A DNA stretch of 64,000 nucleotides, taken from NCBI GenBank assembly GCA_046563655.1, contig CM102285.1, forward strand, positions 13,578,001 to 13,642,000, written 5' to 3'. The stretch's first letter is position 1. Each line of letters starts with the position of its first letter. Shown one piece after another: positions 40,544 to 64,000 of the stretch. Below the pieces are notes generated by a model that searched no databases, was not told the DNA's origin, and saw only the letters and a list, made by a program, of their open reading frames with translations. The position numbers were made by a program, and so were the translations under genes. The DNA comes from Yuukianura sp. NJ FZ-2021. Lineage: Eukaryota.

Positions 40544-42384
40544 ATGCCAACACCACTTCGTAAGATGGGTCCAAAACGAGGTGCTGCCCCCCGTCTGGCG
40601 AAGCTCCGTCTGCCAAAACGCAAAGCGCAGGTTAGGTTAATTATTACTGCTTCCAATAAATCAGCAGATATTCATAGAGTTGTCAATTTCAGGATTATGA
40701 CGGCGAAGACCCTGAAGTTTTTTCCAGTGCTCGTCGGGCTCGTTATTCAGGGTCGGAAGACGGTGATGATGAAGGCGAAGTTAACAACAATCACAATGAT
40801 TTCCGTAAACCTAAAGGTGCCAGAGTTGTGCACAGTGACAGTGAAAATGAAGTAGATCAAATAGCACGAGAAATGAGGAGTAGCAAGAAGGACGAGATGG
40901 ATCCCCGTGGCAGAGAGGGCAAATCAACCGGCAAAACGAGCAAACGTAACGACAGGAACAATAATAAAGATGGAGATCCTACGCCGAAGACGACTAAAAC
41001 AAAGAGATTTGACAACGAAACGGACAATAAGTTAAGCCCTACCGAAAGTGCTTTGAACAGTAAGCAGTATATGTCTACTATCCAGTAAATTGTCACCATC
41101 ACCGATTGAATTGATAATTGATGATAAATATTGACTACAGGATTGTTGAGTGCCTCATGTAACATTTCTCTCGCGAGTCCGATCTACATATCCTTTGAAC
41201 CTGAAGGACTGAGTCAATTTTGCCGAGAATTCGAAACTATTTTGACAGAAACTGCACCCTCACTCATTGAACATCGGAAGGAGGCGACATTTTACGTGAA
41301 GGCCGTTCTGCTACCGGGTATTCGGATAACACAATCTGACAAGGAGACTCTTCTCATCCAAATCTATCGTCAGACAGTCCAAGATGATATTGCCGATGAT
41401 GAAGTTGAGAGGTACGAAATTCCTCCATATTGCTTTGACTTTGAATGTTGATGTTATGTTAAATGCTTTCCTGTTTTGTTAGAAAACTTCTCTTTAGTTC
41501 ATTGTTTACTTCTTGCGGTTCGAGGGGGACTGCTCAAAGAAAAGGAGTCGGCGGGCACATTCGGCAGCTGGAATTTGAAGACGACGACTTTACTGCCAAG
41601 AATCTCCCTGTTGTCATCTGGTACGGCAAAACCCGTACATGGGACATCCTTTGTCCTTGTTTAGAAAGACAACTTCAGTGCAATTTTCAAAATATTCACA
41701 TCACCCATGTCCACATGCAAATATTTGCTGGGATTTGGCTTCATCAAGACGTTAAACGCGGATGGTTTTCGTCAGGACAAAAGAACAGCGACGGAGTTAG
41801 TATTGACTACCATCACTCCAAGAAGTCTCAAAAGGAAAACAAAGTCTTTAACGTTGAACTCAACTTTGGGCAATGGAAAAACGACCTCGAACAGTAATTT
41901 TCTTTCCACTTCTGGTCAAAATTAAAAACTGACACGCATAATCACTAAACTTTCGTTTTTTTATACCGCAGTGTTGAGTATGATCTGGAGAACAATCTGC
42001 CGTTCAAACAAGCACTTAAGAAAATTTGGCAGGAAGTACTGGATGCTCACTTGGCCACGTACAAAGATGATCTTAGCAAGGCCGACTTTATCAAGATCAG
42101 AACGAGTTCTTGTGTCATCAGCGCAAACGGACGAGTAAGATTACTCCAATTTGTCATTTTTATGAAACTTTTGATCTTTGTGTTGTTTATGCAACTTTTC
42201 ATCTTCGTGTTTTTTGTGAAACTTTTGATTTGTGTGATTTTTGTAGATCAAGTTGAGGAAGGGAACAAAACTCAGTGAATTCCAGGCGGTCTTTTCCCAG
42301 TTGACGCGGATGCTGGAACTGGGATCGACTGGTGGCACAATGTACCAAAGAACACAAGGAGCACAAATACAAGAGAAGTCTTAA
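40544..42384 (+). CDS. CENPL: Divergent centromere protein L (CCAN) homologue, ~478 aa
   Basis: Exons 40544-40630, 40693-41059, 41141-41411, 41483-41893, 41972-42134 and 42247-42384 splice in frame. Segments LLPGIRITQSDKETLLIQI, LPVVIWYG...LERQLQCNFQNIHI...FAGIW and DLSKADFIKIRTSSCVISANGRIKL align by eye to CENP-L blocks as I recall them. Confidence 0.72.
42151..42246. repeat. 27-bp intronic tandem repeat, ~3.5 copies
   Basis: ATGAAACTTTTGATCTTTGTGTTGTTT-like units fill most of the last CENP-L intron. Confidence 0.7.
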
Positions 42385-43253
42385 TTTTTTTCTCTACGTT
42401 TATACATTTTCAAAACAAAAAAAAAAGCAAAGTAGGAACAAAGAAATTAACAAATGACTCGTTCAGTATTTTCCTAAAAACTGCTACTGCAATCCATGTT
42501 TTCTGTAATACTGAAGTTGAATTGTTCTTAAGATTCAGGCTCAACTCCTCTAATTTTGTTCAATTAACTAACTTCTCTTTTCTAATTTTTACTTTGCTTT
42601 AGATTAGTACTCTTGGATCTTGGAATCATTCTTTACTTGATTACCAATATTAAAATGAATTAATTGTCTTTACTTTTTAACTTTTAGAGAACCAGAACAC
42701 CTCAGATATAATTTATGAATAAAGTTGTAGCAATGTTATTCTCAAATTGTGTCTGCAAGGTCACTCAAAGGTTAGGTAAGGCAGGGAGCTGCTGGAAGGT
42801 TAGGTCAAAGGTGAATTTAATCGAAATTTTGAAAAAAGTTTTGTTTCTATTTGAAAAGTTCTAAAAATTTTAATCCGATTTTGTTTTACTTTGCTTCCAG
42901 GCTTGTTTTCTTCATTCATCTTAGGATTTGAAAGCATTTCGGAAGTGGAGTTTGCGTGTTCACCGGAATCTCGTAGGGTTTCCAATTTTAGGGAAGTCGC
43001 TGCTCCGGTTTTCAGCCAGAACCCGGGAAAGTGTGATCGGAAGAGGAGTTTCGCTCTTGCTTTGGTTGGTTTCACCACATGCTAAACCAGTTGAGTCGTG
43101 GAGAAAGTACGAAAGTTGCAACAACAAGGAAGTAATCACTACAGGAAGTATCCAGATTCTGGGTTCCAGAAGTAAACAAGACACCGCTGTCCAGAAGCCA
43201 CGAAGTCCAGTTGCCTAGCGACGTCAAAATTCCAGTGTCGTCATTCGTCAACT

Positions 43254-46200
43254 ATGTCACGTCGGAAACAAGCCAAACCACGAGCAGTTCTTCTAAAACG
43301 TGAGTCAAAAACTTCTTTATTTTGAAAAATAGGTTAAGCAGTAAGCAAGTTGCTGTAGAATTTAGCGGGAACAATTCGAACTGATCGAAATTCGGAAATG
43401 TGCTGGGTCCCCCCGATTTTCCCGGGTATTTGTGTCCCCCTGTGTTAGGGAATGAATGATTCATGAACGCTGGTCTGTGCCTGTTCTAATTAGAGTAGAA
43501 GGCTGAAGGAGAAGCGTCAAATGGACATCTTAGAAAAGCGTTTGTGACTTCCCCTGCCTTCTAATTACTCAAAGTAACTCTTAGCTAATGAGAAGAATGA
43601 CTCCTTCGGTCTTACACTTTCTCCTGAGACCACCGCCAGCATCCAGCATCTCTCAGTCTGTAATCTCCCTGTAGAGCCTTCCTGGATCTTAGCTTGTCCA
43701 ACTAAGAATTATTGTCACTGGAACAGGTCCCGTTCTTTTAAGAAATTAAACTTTGGAAAGTAATTATGCCTTCCACTTTTTAATCATTAGACACCGAGTT
43801 TCTAGTGGGACGCTGTGAACGTTGGTGGGAATTCGAAAATACGCAGCTTTTTTCCCGGTCCATCCGGAGAAAGTTGGGCTAAAAAATCGGATGTTCCTGG
43901 AAAATGAGTTTTTCGAAATTTCGAACTTCGATGCCATTTTCATTTTTGCGCAACTTTTCCTTGCACTTTTCATGTTAACTGGTCAGATCACCGGTTCCTG
44001 TTCCACAAAATTTCCCCGATTACGGATTTGCAAATTTTTTCGATCTGAGATTTTTTTGACGTTTCGATTTCTAATAGGCTAGCGGCTAGGTTTCCTTCCA
44101 CTGATTTACCTTTTTAAGTTTTTTTTTTATTTAATTTTGGTAAGTTTTCACTTTGGAGAGAAAATTGGAATGAGCTTGGTTTTTTTAGGAAAGGTGAAAG
44201 TTCAGGTTTTGAGAATGTTTTTAGTTTTAAGTTTTTTTTTCCTAGTTTTTTGAGTTTTTGTTAGTAGCTTTTTGGGTGATTGCTTGTTCATCTTGGTTCC
44301 TTTGTGATAGTGATGAGGGTAAATTCCAGTGGGATTTGGATAGTTTCGTGTTTCGTATCTTGAGATGCGTTTTCCCTGGTTATGGTTAGAGTTGAAGTTA
44401 AGGTTAGGTTTGGCCTAACTATTGCAGCAGTACAGCCTCTTCGTGTCCCACGAGACTCTCACTCCTACTCCTTTTCCCTGAATTTCACCGAAATTCTCAT
44501 TTTCCTTTTGGAGGCTTCAAATCCCTCGTCTCGTGAGTTGGCTCTGTCCCGTGGGACCGTGGCTCTCACTCCGAAGAATCCTCATTTCCCATTTCCAACT
44601 TTCCCCAGGGAGCCACCCACTCCGCTCCACCAAAACTTCCCGGCCCCACCCGCCAATATTCTCAGGCTATGGAAAAGTTATATGAGCCTAAGTATGGTGG
44701 GGCCTAGGTGGATGTGGGTTTGAGGGATGGTGGTATGGGGACATAATGAAGAGAATTTATAAAGACAAGAGGATTAATGGCTGATGGAGTTGGGCGTCTT
44801 GGCGGGAAGAGAAGTCTGTCTTGGTGTTGTTTTATCGCTTTCTCGGGAGGAGTCCCAAGGACCCTCTCAATCTCACCCCGACACTTTAATTAAGATCTCT
44901 CATTAGAAATACACACAACAAACTAACTTAAGTTAACCTAGTGTAACTTAGGCTTAGACATGTAATGCACAGAGATCCAACCGTCAGGCTAGGTTCGTCA
45001 AGGGAAAGTCTCCAGGTGAAAGTTGAGCAAAACGGAACAAAAGTTCAGTCCCATTCCCAACTACTGTCATGATTCTCTTTTCTGCTCCAATTTTCAAAAT
45101 TAAAGTGTACTATGTTTACAGTATTTAGATTTTGAAAACAAACCTAAGTTAATTAATGACATTTGATTAACTTAGGTTAACCTGCTTGGTTACTAAACGT
45201 TAAGCATGGGCATATTGGCCAGATCTTCTGCAGCGTCTCGCTTACGTTTCAAAATTTTCAGAATTCGTATGGTAATATTTCTGCCTCTTATGGTTTAGTT
45301 TAGTCGTTCTGTTGTCATTTGTATTCCGTTGTATGAGAGACATCTTAAAACTGAAATTTCTGTAGCCGAATTTGGAATTTCACTTCAATTTCGAAATTTG
45401 AATTTCACATTTGGATTCCAGTTTGACTAAAAAATTGATTAAGTTAACCGTTCTTAACTAATCTAAAGTTAATCACAGTTAAATTGGAAATTTTTGGTTG
45501 AATTTTCCAGTTTTTGGAAAAATCTGGTTTGGGTTTGATTTTTTTTCTGGGAGGTATACACCATGAGCGAGTAAAAATCGCTAGGGGTTGGTTTCTAGTT
45601 TTTAGTTTTTGGAAATTTTGAAAAAGTTTTGGAAAAAGTAGATTGACACTTTGATTCTCTTGAGAAGTGAATGTCCCCTATGATTTCTAGGGAACTTTTT
45701 TAGAGAAGGAAGGGCCAGAGGAAGGTTTTAGTGATGGACAAGACAAAAGTTTTGAAGAAAGTAATTGTAAAATTGTAAGGTGTGAGAGTATGAAGAGGGA
45801 AAGTGTGCTTTCCCCTAGGGATTTCCTTCGAACAAACTTATTTTCTCCTTTGTTCTTTTTTTTTTCTTCACTTGGAAATTGGTGACACTTCCCTCGTCAA
45901 CTTCTCGAGCAGAGTTCTGCCGCTGCCAAGGAGAATTTTAAAGGGAAAGGGCCCCTCCCCTCCTCCTCTGCCTGATAAGTGCCTCAACTTTGAGTGTCTC
46001 TGTTGGCTAAAGTTTTGTCTCCTTTGATGAATTAGTTTTTGGAGAAGAAAGAGAGAGCTCCTGGTTACGTTAGTTTTAGGTTGGAAAGTAAGAAACGTCT
46101 TTTTGCAGGAGAAAGTCCCTGGAGAGACTTCTGGCGCAGGGGCCTGAGTGTGTGTTGTGGAAGGCTGTAAATCTGTAGGTCGTATGAATATATTATTAAC

Positions 46201-49200
46201 ACTTTCTCCGATTCCCTCTGATGGATGAAGGGCCTACCCTCTGTCCCTTGAGGGTTCCTTGGCAGAAGAAGGGGACATTCGTACAATTTATGTCTCCTTC
46301 CCAAAGTCATTAACACCAAACACTTTCTCCCAGATGAAATCAAGGAAAACAACCGTCTTCTGCTCAACAACAGCATCTACTCCTTGTGCTAGATGCTGCA
46401 GACTTCCTTGGAATTATTCCATTTGCCCTAGAGAGTTTTAACAGACAGGAATAAGGAAAGGAAAGCAAGGGAAAGTCAACGTAACTAAACCTAAAAGTCA
46501 CCCCTCCGCATTCTCATGACCTTTGACCTGCGCCAAAATCCAAAATCTAAAGGCGTCATACCTCAATTGTTACTTTTTACAGTTTGGATTTCTTGAATTT
46601 GAGAATTTTTTGAGAATTAAGGGAAAGGAAAGGGCAGAATTTTTTTTTTTTTTTTTTTTTGTAAATTTTTTATCCCAAATTCATTGAAAATTTAATTGTC
46701 TCACTATGAAGAAACGTGGAATCAGTCAAGAAAATTTTTTTTTTGGAAGTTCCACACTGGACCCGAAAATTTTCGAATCCAGCAGAAATGAAAGGTTTTT
46801 TTTGTCATTTTTTTTCCTGTTTACCTACTTTTGAAGTCATTTGCAACTTTTGTGAAATTAGTACTATCTAAATGTTAGTTTTTTTTTAGTTCGACTGAAA
46901 CCAAATCCTCTCGTTTTCCGAAAAAGATTTTTTTTGCGGTCCCTTGTCTCATTAGGTTAGGTCATATGGATCACGACTAATGTTACGATATTTTTTTTCA
47001 TATTGGTTAAAATTAGCACCAAAAGAGAAAAGACCGATACGTTTTGGTTGATAACTTTTCTAAAGATAAGCCGTGAGATTTTAAAAAGATTTTCTTTTTA
47101 AAAAATCAGAGTCGCAGTGTGGTTTTTTTCCGAGACGAATTTTGTTGTATACAATTTGTTCCGCATTGGTTAGTTTTTTTCTTCTCCTTTTAGAAAAGAA
47201 GGAAGAAAGTGGCTTAGTTTTTTTTTGTCGTGATTATAACGGAAGCGGGTGCTGGTGTAGCTAAATCCATCCTCATTTGTGGTTTTGGTGTCGTCGTAAA
47301 GGAACTTTTTTGTTTTTTGCTTACGTTTTTTTCTTGAAATTGTTAAATTATGAAAAGAGAAAGCCTTTTTGAGGACTTTTGAATAAATTTTGAGCCCTAA
47401 CTTTCTTTTTCTCTCCTTAGTAATTTTTCCCGTGTTGCATAAAATGAAAACACAGAGTTGTAAGTTTTGTTATTTTATTTGATGATGGCGGGAGAGGAAT
47501 TGTGTGTGTCTCTGCTGAGCTTAAGTTTCCCAGAAGAAAAAACTCAAATTCCCAAGACCCTGCTAAAAAGTATTAAATCTCCAATTTCATTTTCACCAAG
47601 CCTCTGCCGCTTCCGTTTTTTAAGTTCAAAACAACACCTTCCCTGCTTCACTTTTTTTTTAGAAAAGTAGGAAAGCGTCTTTTTCTTTTTAGATTTTTTA
47701 AAGAAAAACTTCATTTTCTTTCTCCTTTATGCGATTAAGGCGCTGCTCCTACTGAGTTTTCTACTTTCCGAACTTCAAGTGCGCAAATTAGAGTGGGAAA
47801 TTTTGAAATAGAAAGCACATGCTAATTCTTTGGAAGTAGTGAAAAGTTCTTCTTGTTATAAACCAATTTCCTATGCTTTTGCTTTTCATTAGATCAGAAA
47901 GGGGAAGAGGATGAACCAATTCGGAAAAAAAAGTGGTTCTAAAACACGGTGAAAAAAGTTAGAAAGCTCATAAGTTTTAAAAAAAATGAAAATAAGAAAA
48001 AGTGGATCTTTTTTTCATTTTTTGAATTAGGGAAAGTGAAAGCAAAAAAGAAAATTGATATTTTAGTGAGAAAAAATTGGTACTTTAGGACTTCATTTCA
48101 GTTTTTAAAAAATCGAAACATAAGAGTCAATTTTGTCGTTGTAATTGAGCTACTTTCACTTTCACCCGCCTCGATTCTCTCCCAGAGTTTGAGGCTTTTA
48201 AAGGTAAAGTGAAAGTTAGCGGAGCAGAACTTTCACTTTTGGTTTAAACCACCAGAAACGCAGTATTCATGAAGAACGAACTGTTAAGTGGTGTTCATAA
48301 ATTAAGTTCAAACAAACACATTTTCAAGTTTCCATTTTTAGGTTTCAAAAAAGTTTATTGGAAATCGGAATTATAATTTTTTGTCAAACATTTATCGAAT
48401 CTCGAATTGGAAATTGAAACTTTATGAATTTATTGAAACCGGAAGTGAAAGTTTTTGAATTTTTTGGTTTTTGGAATGCAACGAATGTTTTTTTGTTTTC
48501 ATTTGTTGCAAACCACTGTACTATGGTGAATAAACTGTTGAAATTTGGATGGTAATGGGGATATGAGTATAAATTTCCAGTGGAAGTGAATTTGTTCTTT
48601 AGGTTTTTGAACTTTCTTTTTTTATTTTTCTAACAATAATTTTCGTTCGTAGAATTTTATTTTGAAGATGTTTTTTCTGAAGTTTCGTTATTTTGAAGGC
48701 CCTTGTGATTAGAAAAGGCTCTCTGGGAGATGATGGTAATTTTGAAAGTGGAAGTTGACGTTTTGAAGGGTATGCTAGGGAACAGGGGCACTTTCCCCAG
48801 CAGACTCTCCTTCCAGAATGTGATTAATCCAGGGAGTCCCAAGGGCCCTCCACGCAACCACTCTCCACTTTCTGTGCAGAGTCCAGGAGGACTTTCTCCA
48901 CTTTCACCAGCCACGGCAAAGCCACCTTCCCAATTAGCTCAGAAAGGGAATTCTCAATCACACACACTGGGTTAGGCTCTCTCCTGGTCAAAAGTACTGC
49001 TGGAGAGAGGAAGTTAGGCTGAATGGAAAATGGTTTCGTCATATTACATGTTATAAGCTTAGTTTTCAAGTTAGGTTGGAGTCATCTGGGAAGCGGAGGA
49101 CCAGAGACTCACTTTGGTTTTCACTGCACGACACCCTTCCCCAGGGAGGTCAACTAATCAACCTTCGAAGTGCGGCAGAGCTTCACCTCCAGCACTTTAG

Positions 49201-52200
49201 GTTACGTTAGGCTAACCTAACACTGTACAAACTTAGGAGTTGCGTTCTTAATACCTAGAAGTTCTGCGCAAAAGCATTTTCATGAAAAGTCTAATCTTTG
49301 CTGCAGTAAGACATTAGGTTAACATTGCGGTTAAGGTTAAAGTAGCCCACGGGTGAAAGTCACTAGCAATTCTTCAATATCCAAAAGTTGCTGGAAGGTC
49401 TCCAGAGGATAAGATAGGAACATTAATTAAGAACGGCATTACACCTATGGAGGGAAAAGAAAATGAGAAGAGACTTTACAACTCATATAAAAATATTAAG
49501 TGAAAGAGATACGAAACCTAATCTGTGGAGAGAGATAGGGGACGAAAGTTAGCCTAACCAACCTAACGTAGCCTAATCCTCGAGAGAAAGTTACAGCGGT
49601 GGAGGTTTGTGGGGAGGAAGGCGATTTTGGCGGGAGTTTTTGAATAGCCTAAGCGTAACCTTATTTGAGTTGACACTTTCCGCTTTCTCCGTACTTTCTA
49701 ACTTAACTTTTCCTACGCATCTTCATCAATTAGAAAGTTATTAGTTGTTTTTGTTTTTCCCGCGCATGAACTTTGTTTCGAAAAAGGCTTGTAAGGTAAA
49801 GTAGTTGGGGCACGCTTAGAAAGTTCTTCATTAATTAGCTCCATCTTGACTAATTGACTTTCTCCTGCTCTTATTTTGAGGTTATAGGCTTCTTTTTTTG
49901 AAAAGTGCAAAAGCGGAAATTTTCCCGCCAAAGGAACACTTTCTCCTCACGATAAACAAATTATCAACAATTACTTTGTTCCTAAGTTTCTCGTTTGAAC
50001 TTTCACCTAACCTCACTTTAAAGAAAAAAAAACGCAGGTTTTCTTCATCCCTTAAAAAGCGCGGGTTTTTCTCCCACCTTGAAAAAACAGCGCGTTTTTT
50101 TAAAGTTTTGTGGCTGAAGCACTCACTACACTTTTTCTTTCGCTGGAGAAGAGCGTCCCTGGAGAAGATTAAAATTATGCAGTTTGGAATGGCTTTTTTT
50201 GGTTTAAGAAGAAATGGAAAGTCTCTTCGTTTTTTTTTCTTTGAAATTTTTTTTTTCGTTTTTTGAAGAAAAACAATGGAAATCCTTCTTGTGGAGAAAG
50301 GTTTCTTTCTCTCTCGTAGAAAAGGAAGGGCGGAGGAGACTTGGAAGGAGAGGTCCCTTGAGGGCTCCTCCGCACCACCCCACCGCCCCATTCCAATTCC
50401 ATCGTAATAATTCTCCACCACCCTCAATCTCTGTTCAGGGGATTGGGAGGGGGGAGGAAATAAGTTTTTCATTGGTGGGGGGCCCTTAATTGGGGTGGGG
50501 AGCATGGGGGCGGTGGTGGGTTTCCGTTACTCGGTTGACATTTTAATGTCTCCGTCTGTCTTTCCGGTTGTGAGTGAAAGGTTGTTTTCTCTTTGTGTTG
50601 TAGAGATGTAATGAGAGAGGATTCCTTTTGGTTAGGTTTTTCTCTGGAGAATGTAGAACTAGTAAGACATAGATTCTGGAAGGCGACTACTATGCTGGAT
50701 TGTGGAAAGTGGTGGTGTTGGGCATGGTGTGTGTGGAGGAATGGGCTGGAATGGAACTTTGTTCCCGAGGAAACTGCTGTCTGGGGAGGTGGAAGAAGCT
50801 CCCTGGAAACTCATTATTCGATTTCTGGAAGTAAAAATGCCTGGAGGAAGGAGAAAGTGCGTCCAAGGGAGACCCTCGTGGGATTTGCCTTAATTTTCTG
50901 CAGTTCTGAGCTCAGTGCTCCCTTGAGACTTGTGCAAAGTTTATTCGCCTCCTCTCCCGCCACGGAACAACTTGGCTCCTCATACATAAGAAATAGTTTC
51001 ACGGAGTCCACAAGAACCGATCCAGGAAAAACCTTGTGGAACTTACTTCTAAAAAGTTACTGTACAGTTTGTTTAGTTTCCTGAGCATCAGAAACAACTT
51101 TAGGTTATGTTGGGCCAATGGCCAGTCAGGATCTGGCGGAAGAGAGATCCAATGGCCACTACGAGTGTTCAAATGGACAGGGTTATGGACATAACCGAGC
51201 TACAAACTTATTGCTACTTTCTCCATCAACACAATTCTTCATAAATAAATTTTCACTAAGGTTGAGCAAAACGGGAAACCTTACCTTATGCTTACACTTT
51301 GACCCATGACGACGTAGATTAGTTAAGCCAATAAAAATTGGGTAAAAACCGTAAATTTTGACAAACAAATTTCGTTTTTTGAAAAATTTGTCAAAAATAC
51401 CAAGTTTCGTAAACAAAAAGAAAACACTTTCTTCACCAGGTCGTCCAATAACTCGAAGTTTTAAAATTTGTTTGAAAGTAGCAAATCTGCCTTTCTATGG
51501 TAATTTTTGAAGGTAATATAAATGGGATTGGTGCTAAAAGTTGTTTGAAGCAAGATTTTTGAAAACACTGAGTTATTGGACAACCTGTAGGAAATCAAAA
51601 TCGGTTGTGAAAGAACCTTGAAAAATATGGTGGTGAAAGTTGAGCAGATACGTTGATGAACTTTTTTTTGTAACAAATTGTGGTATGGAGGTCGTTGAAC
51701 TCTAAACTTTTAAGTTCCACCCCCTTAAGTCCCCCCTCCTTTTTTCCTGGGCCTTAGAGCAAGAGTAAGTTCTTAAGGGACTTTAAGGGGGTCCCTTGGG
51801 ATGACCCTGTGTCCCTGAGCCCATTTAGGAAGCGAGGGAGAGGCTGCTGGAGAAGGGCGCTTATTAAAGTCACAGTCTCTGGGGAGCAAGACGGAGGATC
51901 TGCACGAGGAAAGAGTCGAATTTAAAAATACTTTCTCCACTAAAGGGAAAGCATTTCATCCCTCCCCCTCCCCATTTTAAGACAATCCAACCATCCCTCC
52001 AAATCTTACGAATAAAAAGTTATAAAAGTTCTACAAGATTACACAAATTTCCTGAAAGTTATGTCAGAGGTCAGCTAGGGTTCAGAATTTGAAATTTAGT
52101 TTTGGAATTTCGAAATTTTAATTTTTGATTTTGGTTTTTTGAATTTGCAGATGAAATGATGGAGGGTGAAAGTGAAGTTGAGAGAAGCGAAGACGCGGTG

Positions 52201-52282
52201 CCCACAGCCGAAAGCCTGGCAGCTCCAGTGAAAGATTTTCAAGAAGAACTTGACGACGTGTCACTAGATGGCTCCGGTTCAG
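43254..52282 (+). CDS. 5' coding exons of a NuRD-motif zinc-finger transcription factor (ZNF423/521-Oaz-like or spalt-like); incomplete, no zinc-finger exons recognised in the window
   Basis: Exon 43254-43299 encodes MSRRKQAKPRAVLLK plus C before a GTGAGT donor. Exon 52151-52282 (TTGCAG acceptor, GTGAGT donor, phase 1-1) continues HEMMEGESEVERSEDAVPTAESLAAPVKDFQEELDDVSLDGSGS. A candidate 5' UTR acceptor lies at 42900. Confidence 0.75.
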
Positions 52283-55200
52283 GTGAGTAGCCCTTAAGGG
52301 CCCCACTTTCATATTTTATTTAGAAATTTAGAACGGGGGGCTTTGTATTTGGAAATCCACCTTTAGAATGTGGTTTAATGTCTCTGGAACTGTTGAATTA
52401 GAAAAACATATTGTTGGAATTGGTAAGGCCTGGGGCTCCCTTGAGACACTGGGGCCTTAGTCCTTGTGTTACGTGGAGCTGTTCTCTGTTAGTCTCTGTA
52501 GTACTTTCGTTTTGATCCGTAAGTGGAGAGATAGGATTTCCGTGTTCCAGGGAGATTTTAATTGATTAGATAGACGGCTTCTCCTACTTCCGCTAATTCC
52601 CAACCAGCCACTCTGTCTCCAGGGAGCGTCTCCACACTTTCCCCACTTTCTCTCTCCTTGGATCTGTAATGACTTCCTGGGCAACCGTTACCTAGGTTAC
52701 CAGCCTCCAGGAATAAAAATTCTAAGAAAAATAGGCTATGTGTGTGTGTGGTAAACCTCAAGAGACTCAAAAGCTCTGCACTCCACCCCTTACACACAAA
52801 ATTACAAAAAAAATGTGTAAGGAAATCTATATTTTTAAATTCTAGATTCAAAAGATGCCTTGAACTGAGGATTTTGATCTTCAAAAACCATAATCGACTC
52901 GAATTTTTATTCAAAGGGCGTAAAAATGTTGTAAAGTTTTTGGTTTCTGAAAATTATAAGTTTGTTGAAAATTTTCGTTTTTTGAATTTGTTCAAAGTGC
53001 TTTTATTTCATCAAAAAAGGTTGTTTCCGGTTTCCCATCAAGATGGGCCAAACAAGATTCAGTTTTCATATGTTTTAGGAACATTTTTTTGAAAAGTTGA
53101 AATTTTGAAAGAGATTTTTTGTTGTTAGGAGTGTATTTTTTGGTTTGTTTGTACTAGATTTGGAAGAGGGCGGTTCCGCTCTTTTGAGGAGCAACAATAG
53201 GTGAACAATCGATATCGTTTTCCAAAAGAAGAAGAAAATTCACCAACAAAATTCACTTGAAAGATCATTGACAGAACGAGGTCCTAAAATCCTTTTGGTC
53301 CATTGGACACGGTGTCCGTTTGTGTTGTTAAGACGAAGCTCCTTGTTCTTATGGTCACTTTCCGCCCCACTAAAGCACATAATTCACACGTTCTGAACAC
53401 GGCACCATTTTATGCTCAAGTAGGAGAGAAATCTTCTTAAAGCTAAAACAAGTGCAAGAAGTTGCCGAGAAGATAAATTTCTAAACAAAATTGGAAGTTT
53501 GATCCACCGCGGTGGATCCATCGCCTGTTACAATTTTTTTCTGACTTTTTTTTTCGTTTTTTTGGAAAGTGGCCATGATTAGAGTGAGAACCACTTCAAT
53601 TAGATCCACTCCATTTTTGACACGTAGGAACCCAAAATACCTCATACTTACTAGACACGAACAGAATTCAAAATACCGTACTTCCGCCCTCTTAACTCTC
53701 CTTTTAACTCAAAAACAAACAACTACACTCGTCTTTCAAAAAAAATTTAAATTTTAAAAACTTTGAACACTGACTGCAAGAAAAGTTGAAAAATACTTTC
53801 GCTACTAATTTAAAATTCTCACTTTCAAAGCATGTCTAGGATAACTTCCGAGTATTTGTTCAACTTAAAGGACATGTCCGGATAAGAGATTTCTGGGCCC
53901 TCGCGAAGCCTTGCATTGCGTGAGATAGGAGTTGAGATGAGAGAAATGAATGGGAGCAAATCACCATGTAACTTCTCCTATCCCACACCATGCAAAACTC
54001 CCATTGGGCCCAGCTCCCATCTCTTTCTTAAGCTTATCCGGACATGTCCTTTGAATTTTCGAAAAATTATACACGGGACATCAGTTTTTAAGTTTCAAAA
54101 TTTTGAAAAGTCATAAAAAAACTGTAACAAGAATCTGAAACTTTCACCAGTTCGTCAACCCGCTGGAACTGAAAATATTTCCCGAGGAATTTTCCATAAT
54201 TTTCAAAGCATAGAAATTCAAATGGTGTGGAGTTTGTCAAACTTTTTTCTTAGATTTGGTTGTAATTTTTAAAATTTTAGAACACAGTAACCTTTGTTTA
54301 CGAATGCTAAACTCAAAAATCTGATTCTTCGAAATTTCGAAATTTTATTTCTGAAACAACGGTAGTTTGAGTCAATTGCAATTGTTCGTTAGCAGTCTCC
54401 GGAGAGTCACTTGAGCCCCCACCATGCCCCACCGTAGCCCCATCCACTTAAATCCTCCAACATAAAATCTTTGACTTCTGAAACGGAACTGTTAATTTTA
54501 TGGTCTCTTCCAAAAGTAATTAGCTAAACTCAAAAGTACAATGGCCACCGTACAATTCTCATTTAAGAGAGTTCCATTCTTCCCGCCCACTTTATTCCTG
54601 TTTTCTTAAAGGTGTTGGTTTCTTATGCCTTTGAGTGGGGAACTTGTCACCTCAAGTGTGAGATCCTTAACACCTTCTTTAAAAACTTAAAAGAGCTTCT
54701 TTGATTTGATCTTGAGAGATGCCTTTGAAATTTGGCGACTTTTGATGACTTGTCTGTTCGCATTGTTTTCTTTTCGGTCGTTACATTTCACCGCCACTTT
54801 TACATTGACTAAGACCGTTAGGTTTTGAAAGAGGGACTTTAAGTACCTACAGTTTTTATGGAACGAGGAAATGAGGTTCCCCGGGAACTTTAATTTAAAT
54901 TTTATAATTTTATGACCTTGCGCTGTCACTTCCTTCCGGATCCTTTGAGAATTATGGCTTACTTGTAATAGTCAATGGAAATTGGGGGGCGGGGGTCATT
55001 TGTTGACCTGTCACCACCCGCCCCCCTCTGCTTGATCTAATCAACGGCTAATTGCTAAACTGAATCTGTCTTGTATACTTTACGGGTTAAAGCTTTACGC
55101 GGGAAACAGATGCTTTTGTATTGCCTTGATAGAACAATGAAGGGACCGTTTTTCTAAACAAAAGTTTAGAAAAAACAAGATGAATGGGTGGGTGCGTCCC

Positions 55201-55826
55201 TTACAATTTGAAAATTTAAAAATTTAGAGTTAAAATTCAGTTTCTCTGATGTAAATTAGTCAGTTTGGGAAATTTTGTTGGAAAAATCAAAAACGAGGGA
55301 AAAGCTATTCCAGATTTTGAATAATAATTTAAAGCTTGACTTGAATGATGAAAAATGTAAAGAAAATTTTGCTTTCAATTTGTCCTATTGTCTTCAAAAG
55401 TTTTGTGTGTTAAGTTACATGTCCTATTTACGTTTGGTTTTTCTGTATTTTTCGGCTTTTTAGATTTTTTTTTTATGAATGAGCAGTTCCTGACGACGGT
55501 CATCGGGTCGGGTCATCACTGACCTTTGACCTTGATTAATTTTTTGAAATTTCAAATTGTTACAGTTTTTAAAGGATTTTCGTCTGTTCTGTCTGCAAAG
55601 ATGTGTTTGTGACCTGTTTTTGTGTGATGGTGTAAATGAAATTGTTAATTGTAAATTGTAATTAGATGAGTATTGATCCAGTAGGTGCGACTTTGGTTGT
55701 CGCATGTGAGCCTTTGGTTGTTTCCAGAACTTTTTGGACTCCCAGACTCCCGGGAGAGAATAGAAAATTGAGAGATCCGGAGTCCACAGGGGGTCAGAGG
55801 CTCAAAAGTCTCTTTTTCTCCAGGGA
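44547..55826. promoter_or_regulatory. Intronic cluster of COE/EBF-type sites
   Basis: 12 matches to TCCCNNGRGA on either strand, at 44547, 44602, 46116, 49138, 50156, 50919, 51792, 51876, 52437, 52616, 55748 and 55817. Confidence 0.6.
53867..54052. mobile_element. MITE-like fold-back element, ~186 bp
   Basis: Perfect 20-bp terminal inverted repeats AAAGGACATGTCCGGATAAG / CTTATCCGGACATGTCCTTT, plus internal inverted blocks (CTGGGCCC / GGGCCCAG and GATAGGAG / CTCCTATC). Confidence 0.7.
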
Positions 55827-58055
55827 GACCCCCAGTGTTACCCCGAAAGCTCCAAATATACAAAAACCAACGTCTCACTTAAGGGGTGGGGGGCACTTAA
55901 AGGGAGGGGGACCCCTTATGAATAATACACAAATCCACTCAAGCCTCTGCTTCAAATCAACCTTCCCCACTTCACTTTTTTCATACTTTTGGGAATCGTA
56001 GTACTTGGTAATTGCTGGGTTGGGCCCTTGAGGGTCCCTGGCTTTCAGTTTGGCAGGATATGGGTTTGGGAGTTGGTTGGTTCGGAGTAAAGAGGACTTG
56101 GATAGCAGCAGGGGGTACTTTTTAGCACGTAATCACGCGCCCCATCAATTTTCAATTGTCGATTCTTTCTTTTCGTTCAAGAGTTGCTAGGGAAAGTCTC
56201 TTTCTCTCTTTTTTGAACAAGTTTTCTAAAATAGAAAAAAATGAAAAGTCAGGAGGGTGAGGTTGATCTTGATTATTGTTTGTAAAGGATTTTCAAAATT
56301 GATGAAAATTTAAACAAAATTTGAACTTTTCGAGTAGAATGGAACTGTTTGGGAAAATTTGAAAGTTTTTTGGTTTTGGCTAAAATATTTTTGGTGGGTT
56401 TTGAGGTTGATTGAAGGGTGGGTTTTTGGTGGCGGTGGGTGATGGATTGGGTATAGCCCCACCAAATCCTTAGTCCACCATAGCCTAACCTAACATCACT
56501 TTGTTAGGTTATGCTTAAAGTCTAAGTTTGGTGTAGCAGTTGTTATGGAAAGTGTCTCTTGGAGGTCCTTCGGGAGAGGTGGCTCTGTCCTGGCCCCCTG
56601 CTGACACTCAGTTGCCAAGGACCCCCTCCGACCATTGACCCCCTGCTGAGCGACGCCTCTTCTGGCTTCAACATAACAACCATGGGAATACAAACGCCTC
56701 AGCGTTTGTCAGTCCTGGCCAAAACCTAAAACGAACTCTTCATTTTGTTCGAACATGAAACTACGGCAGGAGACGAACGAAAGTGGAGGCCATACGATCA
56801 CATCAGAGATGACTTTATACAAAAATGAAAAAAAAATATTCGAAGCCACCTCCGAAGATGAAGATGACTGTATGATGTCTCCATCCGTCCAACGCCCACA
56901 TCTTCATCTTCTGTCCAAATTACAATTTTTGGACAACTTATGCTTTTTTGCAATTGAACAAAAACAACAGGACGCTTCTCTGTAGGAAATTTTCTGAATT
57001 TCCTACAAAAATTCAAAAAATTTAAATTTTTCATGATCTATTGTCTTGTCAAAACTCTTTTGGAGAGTTCCAAAATTGCAAATTTTCATGAAATTTTTGG
57101 CCGTTTATGACCCAGTTTCTGGAAATATCACTTTTCAAAAAGTGATTTTCATTTTTTCTTGTGAAATTTTTTCCGTTTTTGTGGTGAACTCGTTTTGAAA
57201 CTGGTGGGTTCTCGTGTTACTTTGAAAGCAGACCACAACAGAACACTCTCCTTTCGACTGCCAGTCAAGTGTCAAGTTTCACTTTTCTTTTTAATTTGAA
57301 CCAAATTTTTTGTAAGTTGTTGAATCAGATCTTTAGTTCAAAAGGAGATCCGAAAGTGAGATTAAGACACAAGAGGACTTAAGGCCTCCACTTAACATAA
57401 CTCTTGGCTATGCGCATGCGCTTGTACAGGTTTAGTCAGGATTCCTTTGATCTCATCTCAATTAGTCAATTAAGTGCAACTCACATGCGCTTAAAAACCA
57501 CTTAACACTTTCTTTGTCATGGATCTTTTAAACTGGTTCTGAGAAGATACTGAAGTTATTTCTATTGTTTGAATTTGAAAATTTGAAAAAGGCGCTGCTG
57601 CTTGAAGCTTGATGGAGTTGTCTCGAGATGAAGCACTTAATTGAAATGATAGGTTCTGGTTTGTGTGAGGACTTGAGACCACCTTGACACAAGGGATTCG
57701 TACCTCATCAGAAGTTATGGTTAGGTTAAGGTTAGGCAATCATTTCCATTATTCCAGTTCACGTCCATTGACCACGGAGAGAGAATAAGTTGTAAGGAAT
57801 GGACCAATTACCCACCCTCAGCACTTCTGCCTGGTTCATCTTCTTCCAAAAAGATGATGAGCTTACTAGGAGGTCATCTTGGTCCTTCCTGCCCAATCTC
57901 CACGGTTCCCTCTAATTCCGAACCGAGCTCAATACTCCCCCATCAAGTCAATTTTAAGTCAGGAAGTCAATGGCCACAACGAGACCAATTTTGTGTCAGA
58001 GAGGAGACTCTAATTTCTAGGTTCTGAAAACACATTAAGGCAAAGGCATTGAGGT

Positions 58056-58156
58056 AATCGACGTAAAGTTGTTACGATATTTTAAAATCGACGCATGTTT
58101 GAGCGACACTTTACAATCGACGCACACTGTTGCGACATTTTAAAAAAATTGACGCA
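58056..58156. repeat. Degenerate ~30-bp tandem repeat, 3-4 copies
   Basis: AATCGACG...CGA(T/C)A(T/C)TTT units at 58056, 58086 and 58115, partial at 58147. Confidence 0.6.
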
Positions 58157-61100
58157 GAGACCTTAGGTTTCGTATAACTTTGCAATTTTGGCGACCAATT
58201 TCCTATATCCTGTTTTTATATTTTTATGAACGGCATTTAAAGGATTTTAAAATGAAACCCAAATGTTTTTGAAATTTTTACATACGTTTAAATGAAAAGT
58301 TGTTAAAGATTTGTGACTATTTTCGAACTGTTTTGATTACTTTTTTGAATGTTTGAATGGAGAAAGCATCTCTATATGGTTGTTAAATACGGAATCTTTC
58401 TTGGATACAACTGTTTCTGTTTGTGGGTTTGCAGATTCTCTCATTTGCTAAAAATTTATGAATGGCTTTAGCATGGTTTTGAGTTAAAATTGCAGAATTC
58501 CAACAGAAAATGAATGTTTCTGTACATTAAAAAAAACTCAATTTCAATTTGTCACGTAGGTGTGTTAGGTGCTGTCATCCTTTTTTCCTCCCTCTCCAGC
58601 AGCTTGTTTCTGTTTGTCACGAAAAATGAATAATAATGAATAAGAATACTGAATTTGGCAATAATGAATTCTGTTTTTTCATGAAATGCTGGCAGCAGTA
58701 TCTCACGTTGTCTCCCTCCAGAACCTATTGTTTTTCTGAAGTTCATAAAATGATGAGTTGTGGCAGTTGTAAGGGGAGTCCTAAAAGTTCTGGACGAACC
58801 ACATGCCCTTCCCTCCTAAGTCCGAAACCTGTCAAGGGACTCGGAGGAAAAGTGATGAATGGGTGGTAATTAGGATCTTAGGAAGGTGCGGGTGAGGTCA
58901 TTAAGGTGATAGAGTCATTCACACACTAAGTACACACTTACTTTTCAACCTAACTTAGGTTATGTTCCTGCCAATAGCCTAACTTTGGTCTGGAGCTCAT
59001 CAGATCCAAAGGCAGATGATGAGGGTCCTATTGTCTTCTGGGAAAATACAGTTCGTTTACAAATTAAGACTAACAATAAGTTAGCATAGGGAAAGACTAA
59101 CAATTGTTAGGATGGGAAAAAGTAGCGTCCGGTCAGTTGCCATTTTGAAGTGAAGAAGTTGCTTGTCATTGTCAACGGCCAGAGAGAGGTTGACATTGAT
59201 TTGGATACGTCGCTAAAATAGGCTTGTCCTCCCCTCTCCTAGTCCTGTCTTGTGTCTCATTCAAACAAAACGCTCTTCAGTTCCTACTTTTTGTGCCAGT
59301 TTCCGTTTCCAGTTTTATTTTTTCCGAGTTGTGCGTGATTGAAAATAAATAGGCTCAAATCCTCCCTTTTCACTCTAATTAGAGGTCACTAGGGCCAGAG
59401 AGTCTATTGTTAACGGGGGAAATGGATTTGGATTTGGTCTGGGTGAACTTCATTGTTAGGCAGAACAAGGTCACATGGACATGCGTCCAAGGAGAACAAT
59501 CAGTCCACAATTGGAGTCCCCATTTAAAATCCTATTAGAACTACTTTCATTCAAGGACAGTCCAGGAAACACCCACAATTTTCATGAAATCCTTTTTGTT
59601 GCGAAATTTTTCAACACTTTCTGCATCACCTTTTACACCACCATGCATGCCATGGAGCATCTGCCGGAACTTTTGAAATTTTAATTTCAGGTTTTTCAAA
59701 AAATTGAAAAGTTCAAGCGGCAGGGAAATTTAGCAGGGTTGAGCTGTTTCACTTGGCGTCGAAATTTTCATTAAAATGAATTTTGAATTTCATTTTCAGG
59801 TTTTGATTTTTGGCCAAAATTTTTTTTTTTGAATAATTTGAAAATTGAAAAAAAGGGAAAATTTTCGCTTGTTTTTCAAAGTTGAAAAACGTTTTCCTTC
59901 GTTTTCTTACATCAAAAGTGCACAAAAGTTTTCGGTCGTTTTCCAGTTTCGGCCCTTTGACGTTTTCGCTCCTTTTCCTTTTCGCTCCCTTTGACGTTTG
60001 ACGTTTTTTCGATTGTTTTCTTGTATTTCGGTCTAAGTTAAGCTATTTTTTTCTTTCTTGAAGCATAAACTATTGGTTGTTTGCATCCAATTTGAAGCTT
60101 GCTTTCTCTGTTCTGGAAGGTGTCGGAGTGTTCCTATTTTAAGGTTAGGTTAAGACTGGCCTTAGCCTAACATAACCTAACGTATGCTCCCTTAGACATA
60201 AGGACAAAGTGTCTCGGTCTCATCCTTCGCTGGAGTCCACTGGGAGCCTTCAGTTCCTTTTTCAATGGGAACAAAGTCCTCCACCTGAGATTGGAACAAG
60301 ACAGGGAGAAAGCACAGAGACAGCCAGAATGTGATCTTTCTTATTAAGGCCGAAGGAAGAGGCAGGCTTACGAACTGCCTATGAAATATGTAAAAGATCT
60401 CTCTTTTTCCAGTTTCCAGTTTCAGGTTGTTCTTTTTTTGGCGGGAGAGATGGCCGGAGAAAGTGGAGTTGGTCTAATCCCACTCCGGTGGGACCAGAGT
60501 CCCCCTCCCACATCCATTCCCAGACATCCCTCCAGAGACCCACTCCAAAGACACATACGACTCACAACACTCACCTTTCCCCTACTTTCTCCAGACTAAC
60601 CTTAAAAAATACAAAAACCTAAGGTAAAGTTAGGGTAAAAACATAAGCTAAGGCTTGTTGCAGGTAAAGGAGTCGGTTATGAAGATATGCATTACTTAAG
60701 GGACTGGAGATGACACAGAGGTTGTTCCTCCTCTTCCGCCCTTCTTTTTTCTTTCCCAATTCATAATTCAAAACAATTCAAAAATTTCTCAAAGTCTCGG
60801 TTCGTATAAAAGATTTCATGGAAAAACTAAAAAAAAAAAAGAGAGTAGAAAGTTCGATCTTTTTTGAATCGCTTTCTCCCTTCACTTTTCCAACTCCCAC
60901 GCCAATAGCGTTTTTTAAGCTTTTGATTGATTTCGAATCTCGTGCTGGTCTCAGATTTCTTCGATTTCTGCGAACAGTTTACAAAATCTGCAAAATTTTG
61001 AATTTTGTTTTAAAAAAACTTTTGAATTTTATTTCCAGAATTTTGGAGATTTAAATTCCTCTAAATAAGAAGTTTCGAATTTTTGGCAATTGTGTGAAAT

Positions 61101-64000
61101 AATTGGCGAAAGTTTGGTGTTTGTTTTTCGTTTTGTTGTTTTTTGTTCAAAAGTTTGACACTTTGATTTAAAGTTTGTAAATTAAGACGTTGTTACTTGA
61201 AATCGTAAACATGTCAGGTCATTTCGCAACAGATTTTAAGAAATCCCGCGCTTTTTGTGTTTTTGCAAATTGTTTCAACCATAAAATTGCTGAAAGTCAC
61301 AGTTCAGCAGGAGTCCTTTGACAGGAGGGATGACAGTTTAAGGCAGCGTCCAGGAAGAAGTTATCAAGTGACATGACTTGGTTAGGAATTTTAGGGAGCC
61401 TTTTTGTGTTTAAGTTGAAAGCAGAAGGTGTCCTGGAGTGAGTCCATGGATACCTTAAGGGCTCAAGGCTTTGAAGGCGCGAAGGGCTCTCCTCTGGAAT
61501 CCCTTAAGTGCACCAGCCCTCCAGGGTTCAAACAGAGACAGGCCTTATTGTTCTTTTGACGAAGAAGAAGACTTTACACTTTCAGAAAATTTCAAAAGTT
61601 TTATTTGCTGTAGTACAGAAAAAGTCAAAACATGAGAAAAAGTCAAGAGCACCTTATGTAGTACTTCTTTTCAAAATTTTGAACAAAAGCATTTTTCAAC
61701 TTTTCAAAAAGGTGATTCAGAAATCATCTCCCTCTCGCCCAAATTGGACTTTTAAAGTAGTAAGATGTTCAAAAGGTGTCAAAAAATGTTGGAGTCACCT
61801 AAGTGGTTCTGATTTTTTGTGTTAATTGAAATTAACACCATGAGATGAGCACTTTTCACCTCAAAAAAAAATTCAGAAAAAGAGATTTTCAAAATTTTGA
61901 AGATTGAAGTCTATAGAGCAGCAAGCCAAAGAGTTCTTGTCTAAATTTCAATCTTTTGAAAATCTTTCTCCCTTTTTGTGTTAGGAATTTGAACAATTTT
62001 TGAAGATCAGAGCGTCTCCACTGTAAAAACTGAAACTCAAATCCATCACACCGTTTTTCTGGATGCTCAAATTCAATCTGTCAGATTTTTCAAGTGAATC
62101 TGTCTTCTTCATCTCCTAAAAAGTTTGAAGATGCAACTTACATTTAACTTAACAAAACTAAAGTCACCAACCTCATCCCTCATCCGCCTCCGTCAAATTC
62201 CAAGATCAATTCCACTTCCCAAGGTTTTGAAGGGCTCAAAGGATGCCGAAAACATCTTCATTGGGCACTTGGATTTCTCTTTTTTTGTGCTTTCTAAGGG
62301 CTCCGATTTGTTTTTAAAAAGGCTTTGTCTCCCTCATTTTCTAAGACTTTGAGACAACCATCTCGTGGCCTGGATTTAGAATTAAGGAGGAGTTTTTGGA
62401 AAGTTTTTTTTAGAAAGAGTTTGAAATGTATTGAAAATGAGATTGAAATCTTATTCATTTGTTTTTTCTGAATTCTGGAGAATTTGTGGTGGTCGAAGGC
62501 GTGTTTGAGTTTTTTGGGCAGAGGAAGGGGTGTTTTGTTAGTTTTTTCGATGGGAACGGATCTTCGGTTCCAAAAGAAAGCCGCAGGAAGTGGAGATTTG
62601 TGAAACGAACCGAAGCCGACTGGCGGTTCGACTTCTATTGTGTTACTCTCGACATTGTTTTCTGGAAGGGTGAAAGCAAATTGCTCAAACAATTGAAATT
62701 CAAACGGCTGAAACTTTTTGTTTTCAAAATTTCAAGAAAAAAAAATTGAGGATGTTGCCTGACTTTTGGCTTGGTTTTGCTCACTCGATTGAGCGCCGTT
62801 TTTTGCAGAATTTTGCACAACTAATCAGTGTTGGCGAAAAAGTGCGAAAGTTTAGGATATTTTTTTTGCATTTTTTGAAGTTTTGGTTTTTCTTGACTTT
62901 TCGTTTTAATTTTTTGAAATGAGCTTTGACCAAGGGCCTGGTTGGGGGTACTGAAATTGCTGCTTCTGGATTTTTGGAAAAGGAGATTTTAGAAAAGATG
63001 TTTTGTGGTGGACGAAGGGCTCCCCTTGTACCTTGGACTCAAAGTCATCATATTAAAGGGCTCTCTTTTCCTTACATCTTCTTCTTCTTGACTTTAAGGA
63101 CTCGTAGGATCCCTTTTTAGAAAATGTGTTGGTGACTATGGGTGTGTTGTTTTGTACATTTCTAGAAAGAGGACAATGGAACCATCAGATAACCAACACC
63201 AAACCACCACCCACGATACTAAAATCACAATGACTTCCATTCACAAGTCAAATCCCTAGCAAAAAGGAAACCACTTAACATCTTTCCAAAATTTTACCAA
63301 TTTTATACAAAACGAAATTTTTTGAAAAGTCGCTTCAAAACACTTCACGGGAAGTTAAGGCTTAAGGGGTAAAATTTTGAAAGTCAAATAATTTTGTGTA
63401 CACAAAAATTTCAAAGTTTTCCATCCGAAATAATTAATTTTCTCTTTTCAAGGTTACCTTATAATATTTACATAGTTATCAATGATCCTACTCCGTTGCA
63501 TTGCTTTTCAAAAGTTCGTATTTTTGAGATCTAATTTTCTTTTTTGAAAATTTTTTAAAATTTTCATTCTTTGTATAGATGGGCTTATGAGTCAAAATTT
63601 TGATTTGGACAAGGAAATTGAAGCTTGAAGGGCCTTTTTGAGATGTGAAGGGGGCCCTTTGTTTTCCTCTTTTTCGAAGAAGTTTTGAGGAAGTATGAGT
63701 AAGTGGTGGGTGGATAATCTTTGAAAGCAGAGGGTGAGAAATGGTCCAAAAGTTGACTTCTGGGTGGAATTGTGGGGGCCCTTTTAGTGCACACAACAAT
63801 AGGCCTTTTAAGGGCCCTCTCCAGTTGGAGGTGTGGAATTTCTCGACTTTTTCCAAAGATTCGAATCTTTGAGAAGAGCAGAAAGCCTTAAGAAGCCTTA
63901 GAAGGGCCCCCTTACCTGCCTCAACGTCTCTATTGTTCTGGACGTCTCAGTTTAGTTGCCCAAAATGGCTCCATTAAGACCCTTGACCAAAGGACCCACA

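Follow-up and report, generated by a model that had tools for sequence, protein, structure and literature searches.

The window examined here is a stretch of 64,000 nucleotides (nt) from Yuukianura sp. NJ FZ-2021 (contig CM102285.1, hereafter C3, positions 13578001-13642000), which was analysed together with the next 100 kb; coordinates above 64000 continue those of the window (L002:1 = 64001). Its forward strand carries the 5' end of the predicted single co-orthologue of ZNF423/ZNF521 (Oaz/Lobe) in this genome, a gene for a multi-zinc-finger transcription co-regulator, and this end very probably has two alternative first coding exons, 1a and 1b, which exchange a peptide of the NuRD-recruiting type for another conserved peptide, designated here as motif B. 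Within its known family the locus is ordinary, and the conserved alternative first exon is its unexpected part. All splicing reported below was deduced from the genome sequence and from the gene models of relatives.

Gene model at the locus

An earlier reading of the window, made from its letters alone (the sequence-only reading), had proposed a 46-nt micro-exon that begins with the ATG at 43254 and ends in a GTGAGT donor, and all of these are present in the sequence. The coding content of this exon, 1a, is MSRRKQAKPRAVLLK with one base left over. The ATG is preceded at a distance of 26 codons by an in-frame stop, and is the first in-frame ATG after it, so that R-R-K-Q-x-x-P stands at a free N-terminus; a weak AG 18 nt 5' of the exon could add an upstream exon. 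The peptide is identical in 14 of 15 residues to the start of an annotated Orchesella ZNF423 isoform (P0124), and the N-termini of relatives gave 56 tblastn matches to the exon (best E 3e-8). The exact degenerate pattern ATG-S-R-R-K-Q-x-x-P was found three times in the 98.7-Mb genome as against once for the reversed control, and all three matches are exons of 40-46 nt with a phase-1 GT donor, a shared form unlike that of chance matches. Exon 1a is best read as the ordinary first coding exon of the ZNF423/Oaz gene, carrying the predicted FOG-repression / NuRD-interaction motif.

Peptides of the MSRRKQ type recruit the NuRD remodelling-deacetylase complex, their arginines entering the top pocket of p55/RBBP4. 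The RBBP4 pocket for the N-terminal peptide is described in 10.1101/303537, and an equivalent of the Arg-4 position described there is present in the exon-1a peptide. A gene of the CAF1C_H4-bd (p55/RBBP4) type, a candidate partner family, is present in the genome. The peptide had no match among the PDB sequences, chains of fewer than 20 residues being outside the search.

A long C2H2 array downstream of the micro-exon, which the sequence-only reading had set beforehand as its test, was found from 4.6 kb beyond the window end to just before an archease gene on the opposite strand. Exons 3-10 (Table 1) encode 24 C2H2 fingers (Pfam zf-C2H2 found), a PxDLS motif and a C4-like motif; the seven introns among them are 71-1,005 nt long and all GT-AG, with no internal stop. 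The 10-exon model (1a, 2 and 3-10) has an open frame of 1,217 residues with canonical GT-AG introns throughout, and the 9-exon model (1b and 3-10) an open frame of 1,182 residues. The former has the MSRRKQ start that characterises ZNF423/ZNF521, the join of exon 1a to the fingers being predicted from phase and from Orchesella P0124.

Exon 2 has a T-rich TTGCAG acceptor, a GTGAGT donor, an open frame with 33% aspartate plus glutamate, and a GC content of 51% as against 39% for the interval. It was ranked among all AG-to-GT stretches of 30-600 nt at 43.3-68.6 kb that keep the phase-1 frame and have a passable acceptor, using a home-made and thinly trained score (codon usage from 2,612 local codons, splice matrices from seven donors and eight acceptors of the gene). 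This phase-matched acidic exon, already proposed in the sequence-only reading, ranks first of the 104 phase-1/phase-1 candidates (score 30.8 versus 15.5 for the best non-overlapping rival), among which it alone has a GTRAG donor. Both isoforms are annotated in seven genera (Orchesella, Periplaneta, Zootermopsis, Agrilus, Neocloeon, Portunus and Palaemon), all of which have a linker of 50-170 residues with 16-48% aspartate plus glutamate at the place of exon 2; in Orchesella it measures 50-51 residues, with 27-30%. The Orchesella P0124 start together with its acidic linker of about 50 residues provides the best indirect support for the predicted splicing, in which exon 2 would be an acidic linker confined to the 1a isoform.

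The same model accounts for what had looked like a gene desert and had been ascribed to a hidden gene: the interval would consist of two introns, 8.9 and 16.4 kb long. None of the 19 open reading frames (ORFs) of at least 100 residues in 44.3-64 kb had a Pfam match, and Rfam gave no match in the window or in the adjoining downstream region L002. An ATG-initiated acidic stretch of 38 codons in intron 2 (window 56755-56869, +) equals exon 1b on the home-made score and has a weak donor; it had no match in relatives by tblastn of their N-termini.

Table 1. Features of the predicted ZNF423/ZNF521-type gene, in window coordinates continued beyond 64000
Feature	Position	Strand	Description
Coding exon 1a	43254..43299	+	46 nt; phase-1 donor; predicted N-terminal FOG-repression / NuRD-interaction motif
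Intron 1	43300..52150	+	8,851 nt; GT..AG ends; no Pfam/Rfam match; predicted
Coding exon 2	52151..52282	+	132 nt; phase 1-1; putative acidic linker, 1a isoform
Intron 2	52283..64000 and beyond the window end	+	16,350 nt in total
Alternative first coding exon 1b	68409-68481 (L002:4409-4481)	+	73 nt; MLFKERSSRLELLIEKIQATRDTT; phase-1 donor
Common exons 3-6	68633-68841, 69847-69989, 70171-70378, 70859-71024	+	
Common exons 7-10	71577-71866, 71938-72597, 72862-73489, 73575-74746	+	

Upstream, a multi-exon gene without a Pfam family (window 40545-42300, +) ends about 1 kb 5' of exon 1a, which leaves little space for a distal promoter. An out-of-frame ATG 175 nt before that of exon 1a opens an 18-codon ORF (window 43079-43135, +), a possible upstream ORF if transcribed. 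At the other end, the stop codons of the ZNF423-type gene (L003:746, +) and of archease (L003:983, -) are 236 nt apart (L003:747-982), and the convergent 3' untranslated regions must therefore be very short or overlapping. The window also carries, at 2792-3163 (-), an exon for the ligand-binding domain of a nuclear hormone receptor (Pfam PF00104), presumably E75-like.

Exon 1b and motif B

Several relatives start with MLFKG instead of MSRRKQ. When the first 140 residues of 120 relatives were compared with the locus by tblastn, two clear N-terminal matches were obtained 5' of exon 3, namely exon 1a and the stretch at 68409 (E 2e-11 to Orchesella P0040). The latter, exon 1b, has its own ATG and a CAG/GTAGGA donor in phase 1, lies 151 nt before exon 3, is single copy in the genome and is identical to P0040 in 17 of 21 residues; its motif is MLFKERSSRLELLIEKIQ. 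Neither of the two AGs just 5' of the ATG would keep the frame after exon 1a or 2, which argues for a first coding exon and not a cassette. Database searches added little: exon 1b had no match in Pfam, nor in the sequences of PDB (chains of fewer than 20 residues being outside the search), motif B gave no usable match in an Atlas search, and the 32-residue frame had no credible match by phmmer among 1.84 billion representatives, the sole one being a long tandem-repeat protein without the matched stretch, which was rejected as spurious.

Motif B (MLFKxxSS[RK]LExLIEKI) starts 54 of the 98 named pancrustacean records and none of the 83 other named invertebrate records, vertebrate and unnamed records having been left out of these counts; the motif-B figures are biased upward, as one source search used a motif-B query and the records are related. 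RRKQ was found in 18 and 34 of the same two sets, neither motif in 26 and 49, and both motifs in no record, so the two are mutually exclusive in public protein models. In the seven genera with both forms, the isoforms converge at one point, the start of a Ser-rich stretch before the first fingers. All 25 distinct segments agree at columns F3, K4, G5, S7, S8, L10, L13, I14 and I17, and eight of these nine are kept in the present genome. The motif is conserved across insects, decapods and an ostracod; no vertebrate record among the 301 stored proteins has it. The records listed included no named dipteran, Daphnia or copepod, and the Artemia cluster showed none. Rather than being peculiar to this genome, the conserved alternative first exon is a feature of pancrustaceans.

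A look-alike, [KR]LM[ED]V[VI]ARL, stands just before the shared region in three of 213 records checked, all chelicerate, and a near variant in Limulus makes a fourth case of this type; a loose form of the pattern had no match in 242,543 downstream residues.

A full-text literature search for the letters of motif B, with most subscription literature outside its reach, returned no paper, and listings on Lobe/Oaz isoforms, DmOAZ and insect ZNF423 alternative promoters, together with passages of PMC12412378 and 10.1101/2025.05.30.656936, showed nothing on it. The second first exon with motif B is the new point here; public annotations already contain the isoforms.

Several observations weigh against two first exons used in the manner described. 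The splice junctions and start sites are deduced rather than observed, and the isoforms of the relatives are automatic gene models. An AG 4 nt before the 1b ATG means that exon 1b could follow a non-coding exon, without a promoter of its own. Position 5 of exon 1b is Glu here and Gly in all 25 related segments, which may mean that the exon is relaxed in this lineage. For motif B the hydrophobic moment does not exceed that of shuffled sequences, 46% of which reach its value. Exon 2 has no significant match in relatives (tblastn, best E 1.9), and exon 1a joins exon 3 in frame without it.

Two alternatives follow from such points. Only the 1a form could be real in this species, exon 1b being a decaying relic or translated without consequence; the Glu at position 5 and the rank of exon 1b on the home-made score, only sixth of 241 ATG-initiated candidates, speak for this, but the close identity with Orchesella, the intact ATG, the open frame, the donor in correct phase and the eight retained invariant columns make it unlikely. 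It is slightly less likely still that a real exon 1a is spliced without the stretch at 52151-52282, which would be skipped or replaced by another exon. Its lack of similarity to relatives, the frame that survives skipping and a scoring model trained on few splice sites would allow this; against it stand the first rank of the exon, its sole GTRAG donor, its raised GC content and the acidic linker at the same place in all seven two-isoform genera. A gene with both first coding exons, and with exon 2 confined to the 1a isoform, is preferred.

Family identity and other RRKQ micro-exons

A single-exon query returned 348 proteins at E<=1e-10, and in the best 120 of these, generic labels (one of them a UniRef label) aside, every family name given is ZNF423, ZNF521 or Lobe. 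By blastp the model is closest to Orchesella P0124, at 47% identity along almost the whole length. All 24 fingers are reciprocal best matches with those of P0124, in order, and 18 of the 24 with those of Myotis (bat) ZNF423 (P0069), 17 of them in order. The C2H2 clusters are collinear with the DNA-, SMAD- and EBF-binding clusters as named in 10.1101/2020.03.09.984518, there being probably a one-finger numbering offset between the model and the clusters of that preprint. A CxxC-x(18)-CxxC stretch between fingers 20 and 21, before the EBF-related cluster, agrees with the C4-like motif defined there as CxxC-x(10-31)-CxxC. In a quick tree of 29 rows the model and Orchesella pair with a Shimodaira-Hasegawa-like approximate likelihood-ratio (SH-aLRT) value of 100 and vertebrate ZNF423 and ZNF521 form one clade; as long branches meet in it, the use of the tree was confined to placing the model in its family and pairing it with Orchesella. 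The genome has a single strong match (E 1.6e-63), the next other locus being at 4e-8 (150 scored of 357 candidates), which agrees with the single copy per invertebrate genome that characterises ZNF423/ZNF521.

Other families that share the N-terminal motif were considered and rejected. BCL11 proteins have an N-terminal C2HC finger and six C2H2 fingers, and FOG/U-shaped proteins several C2HC fingers. In the model all 24 fingers fit C2H2, none is C2HC at the N-terminus, and the sole regular-expression C2HC match overlaps a C2H2 finger; BCL11 is absent from the best 120 listed matches. The Sal-box FTTKGNLK, carried by the paired fingers that define Spalt/SALL (PMC5892016), is absent from the model, and three Sal-box matches lie at a separate locus near C3:13.03 Mb. 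An assignment of the micro-exon to spalt, ush/FOG, Bcl11 or any other gene, or to chance, is scarcely credible and already largely refuted: RRKQ is common to the three families and the reversed control pattern does match the genome once by chance, but the sole zinc-finger body downstream is of ZNF423 type, the model lacks the Sal-box, spalt lies on the opposite strand at a distance of about 590 kb, and the residues after the motif fit Orchesella ZNF423 (14 of 15). The preference of the sequence-only reading for an Oaz/ZNF423-like gene over spalt is in keeping with the 24-finger body and its relatives.

The other two RRKQ matches are observations in their own right. One at C5:3979220 (-) (L014; MSRRKQDCPKRIK, 40 nt, phase 1) lies about 13 kb 5' of zinc-finger exons (L016:4442-6732, -), which we take to be teashirt/tiptop, and suggests a NuRD-type start on arthropod Tsh. 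The third, at C3:11300268 (+) (L012; MSRRKQSNPKPLK, 40 nt, phase 1), is FOG/Ush-like by motif; no zinc-finger exon was found in the 40 kb after it, and an acidic ORF begins near +39 kb. The spalt locus (C3:13.031-13.036 Mb, -; L024-L026) has an intron at the end of the conserved peptide before its third zinc finger (ZF3), and the genome-wide pattern search gave no exact ATG-SRRKQxxP match near it; the NuRD motif of spalt has thus diverged, been split or been lost.

Proposed co-regulator switch and known systems

The following arrangement is proposed. A distal start would join exons 1a, 2 and 3-10 into a protein of about 1,217 residues beginning MSRRKQAKPR, a peptide predicted to dock on p55/RBBP4 and recruit NuRD. 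A proximal start 25 kb downstream would join exon 1b to exons 3-10, giving a protein of about 1,182 residues with the same fingers and without the NuRD peptide. Promoter choice would then switch which co-regulator the one zinc-finger array brings.

The finding of exon 1a amounts to an expected orthologue with an expected motif, and its main use is correct annotation. An MSRRKQ start has been reported across all major bilaterian lineages with homologues, invertebrate ZNF423 included, and 67 of 165 vertebrate models of the family lack the first two short exons (10.1101/2020.03.09.984518); neither the motif in invertebrate ZNF423 nor its loss from gene models is new. The earlier warning that such a gene is easily mis-annotated as lacking the motif is to be qualified, since a NuRD-less model may be a genuine 1b isoform. 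Insect and crustacean ZNF423 records without the NuRD peptide would often be a distinct conserved isoform rather than a truncated model, and expression or knock-down studies of Oaz/Lobe in arthropods may hit one of two proteins with different co-regulators.

Residues L10, L13, I14 and I17 of motif B are spaced i, i+3, i+4, i+7 and would occupy one face of a helix, a spacing typical of many co-regulator docking peptides. Motif B most likely forms a short helix on which another co-regulator docks; that it docks a protein at all is somewhat favoured. It offers a sharp 17-residue target that can be tested, and its likeness to a peptide of the Sall proteins could tie two orphan motifs together. The Sall peptide before ZF3 (consensus SETSKLQQLVENID) is highly conserved, in a region possibly tied to repression, and no partner for it is named in the accessible text of PMC5892016. 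It shares with motif B the pattern S-[KR]-L-x-x-L-[IV]-x-x-I; the differences are that it is internal in Sall and motif B N-terminal in ZNF423, and that Sall lacks the MLFKG part. The spalt peptide of this genome scores 26-29 (BLOSUM62) against motif B, a value reached by none of 131,107 background 12-mers (maximum 25), and only 5.2 bits against the motif-B profile; the comparison was chosen after the motif had been seen and the background is rich in zinc fingers. The likeness can be taken as a lead, and a partner common to the two peptides is possible, though doubtful. Equally tentative is the wider proposal that a switch between the NuRD start and an MLFKG-x-SS-[RK]-L-E-x-L-I-x-K-I start has been kept in ZNF423/Oaz since the pancrustacean, perhaps the arthropod, ancestor, with motif B functionally the same as the Sall helix before ZF3. 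If true, the two would represent a second docking site common to NuRD-motif zinc-finger factors.

Capicua is a tested precedent for a co-repressor motif at the N-terminus of one isoform: the N2 peptide of Cic-S gives a distinct Groucho-dependent co-repressor activity (PMC4287436). Like motif B, N2 is rich in leucine, N-terminal and specific to one isoform, and is encoded by an alternative first exon; it differs in protein family and sequence, and is dipteran-specific and experimentally tested, whereas motif B is pancrustacean and known from sequence alone.

The closest comparison is with the family itself. Vertebrate ZNF423 and ZNF521 and Drosophila Oaz/Lobe resemble the present gene in the MSRRKQ start on a short first coding exon, the collinear finger clusters and the C4-like CxxC-x(18)-CxxC before the last cluster, and the last finger matches the last vertebrate finger; the differences are 24 fingers here versus 30 and a second first exon with motif B, seen in no stored vertebrate record. 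Alternative starts also have precedents. Human ZNF423 alpha and beta arise from separate promoters, and only beta has the motif and represses more strongly (PMC3804944); the NuRD-less human start is limited to catarrhine primates (10.1101/2020.03.09.984518). In Drosophila the Ush peptide binds dNuRD and is present only in isoform Ush-B, and the same peptide was noted in OAZ, where its binding was untested (PMC7891773). In the human pair and in Ush-A/Ush-B, as proposed here, the choice of start decides whether a common zinc-finger body carries the NuRD peptide at its N-terminus. The start without this peptide is short in those pairs, whereas in the present gene it is a conserved motif in its own right.

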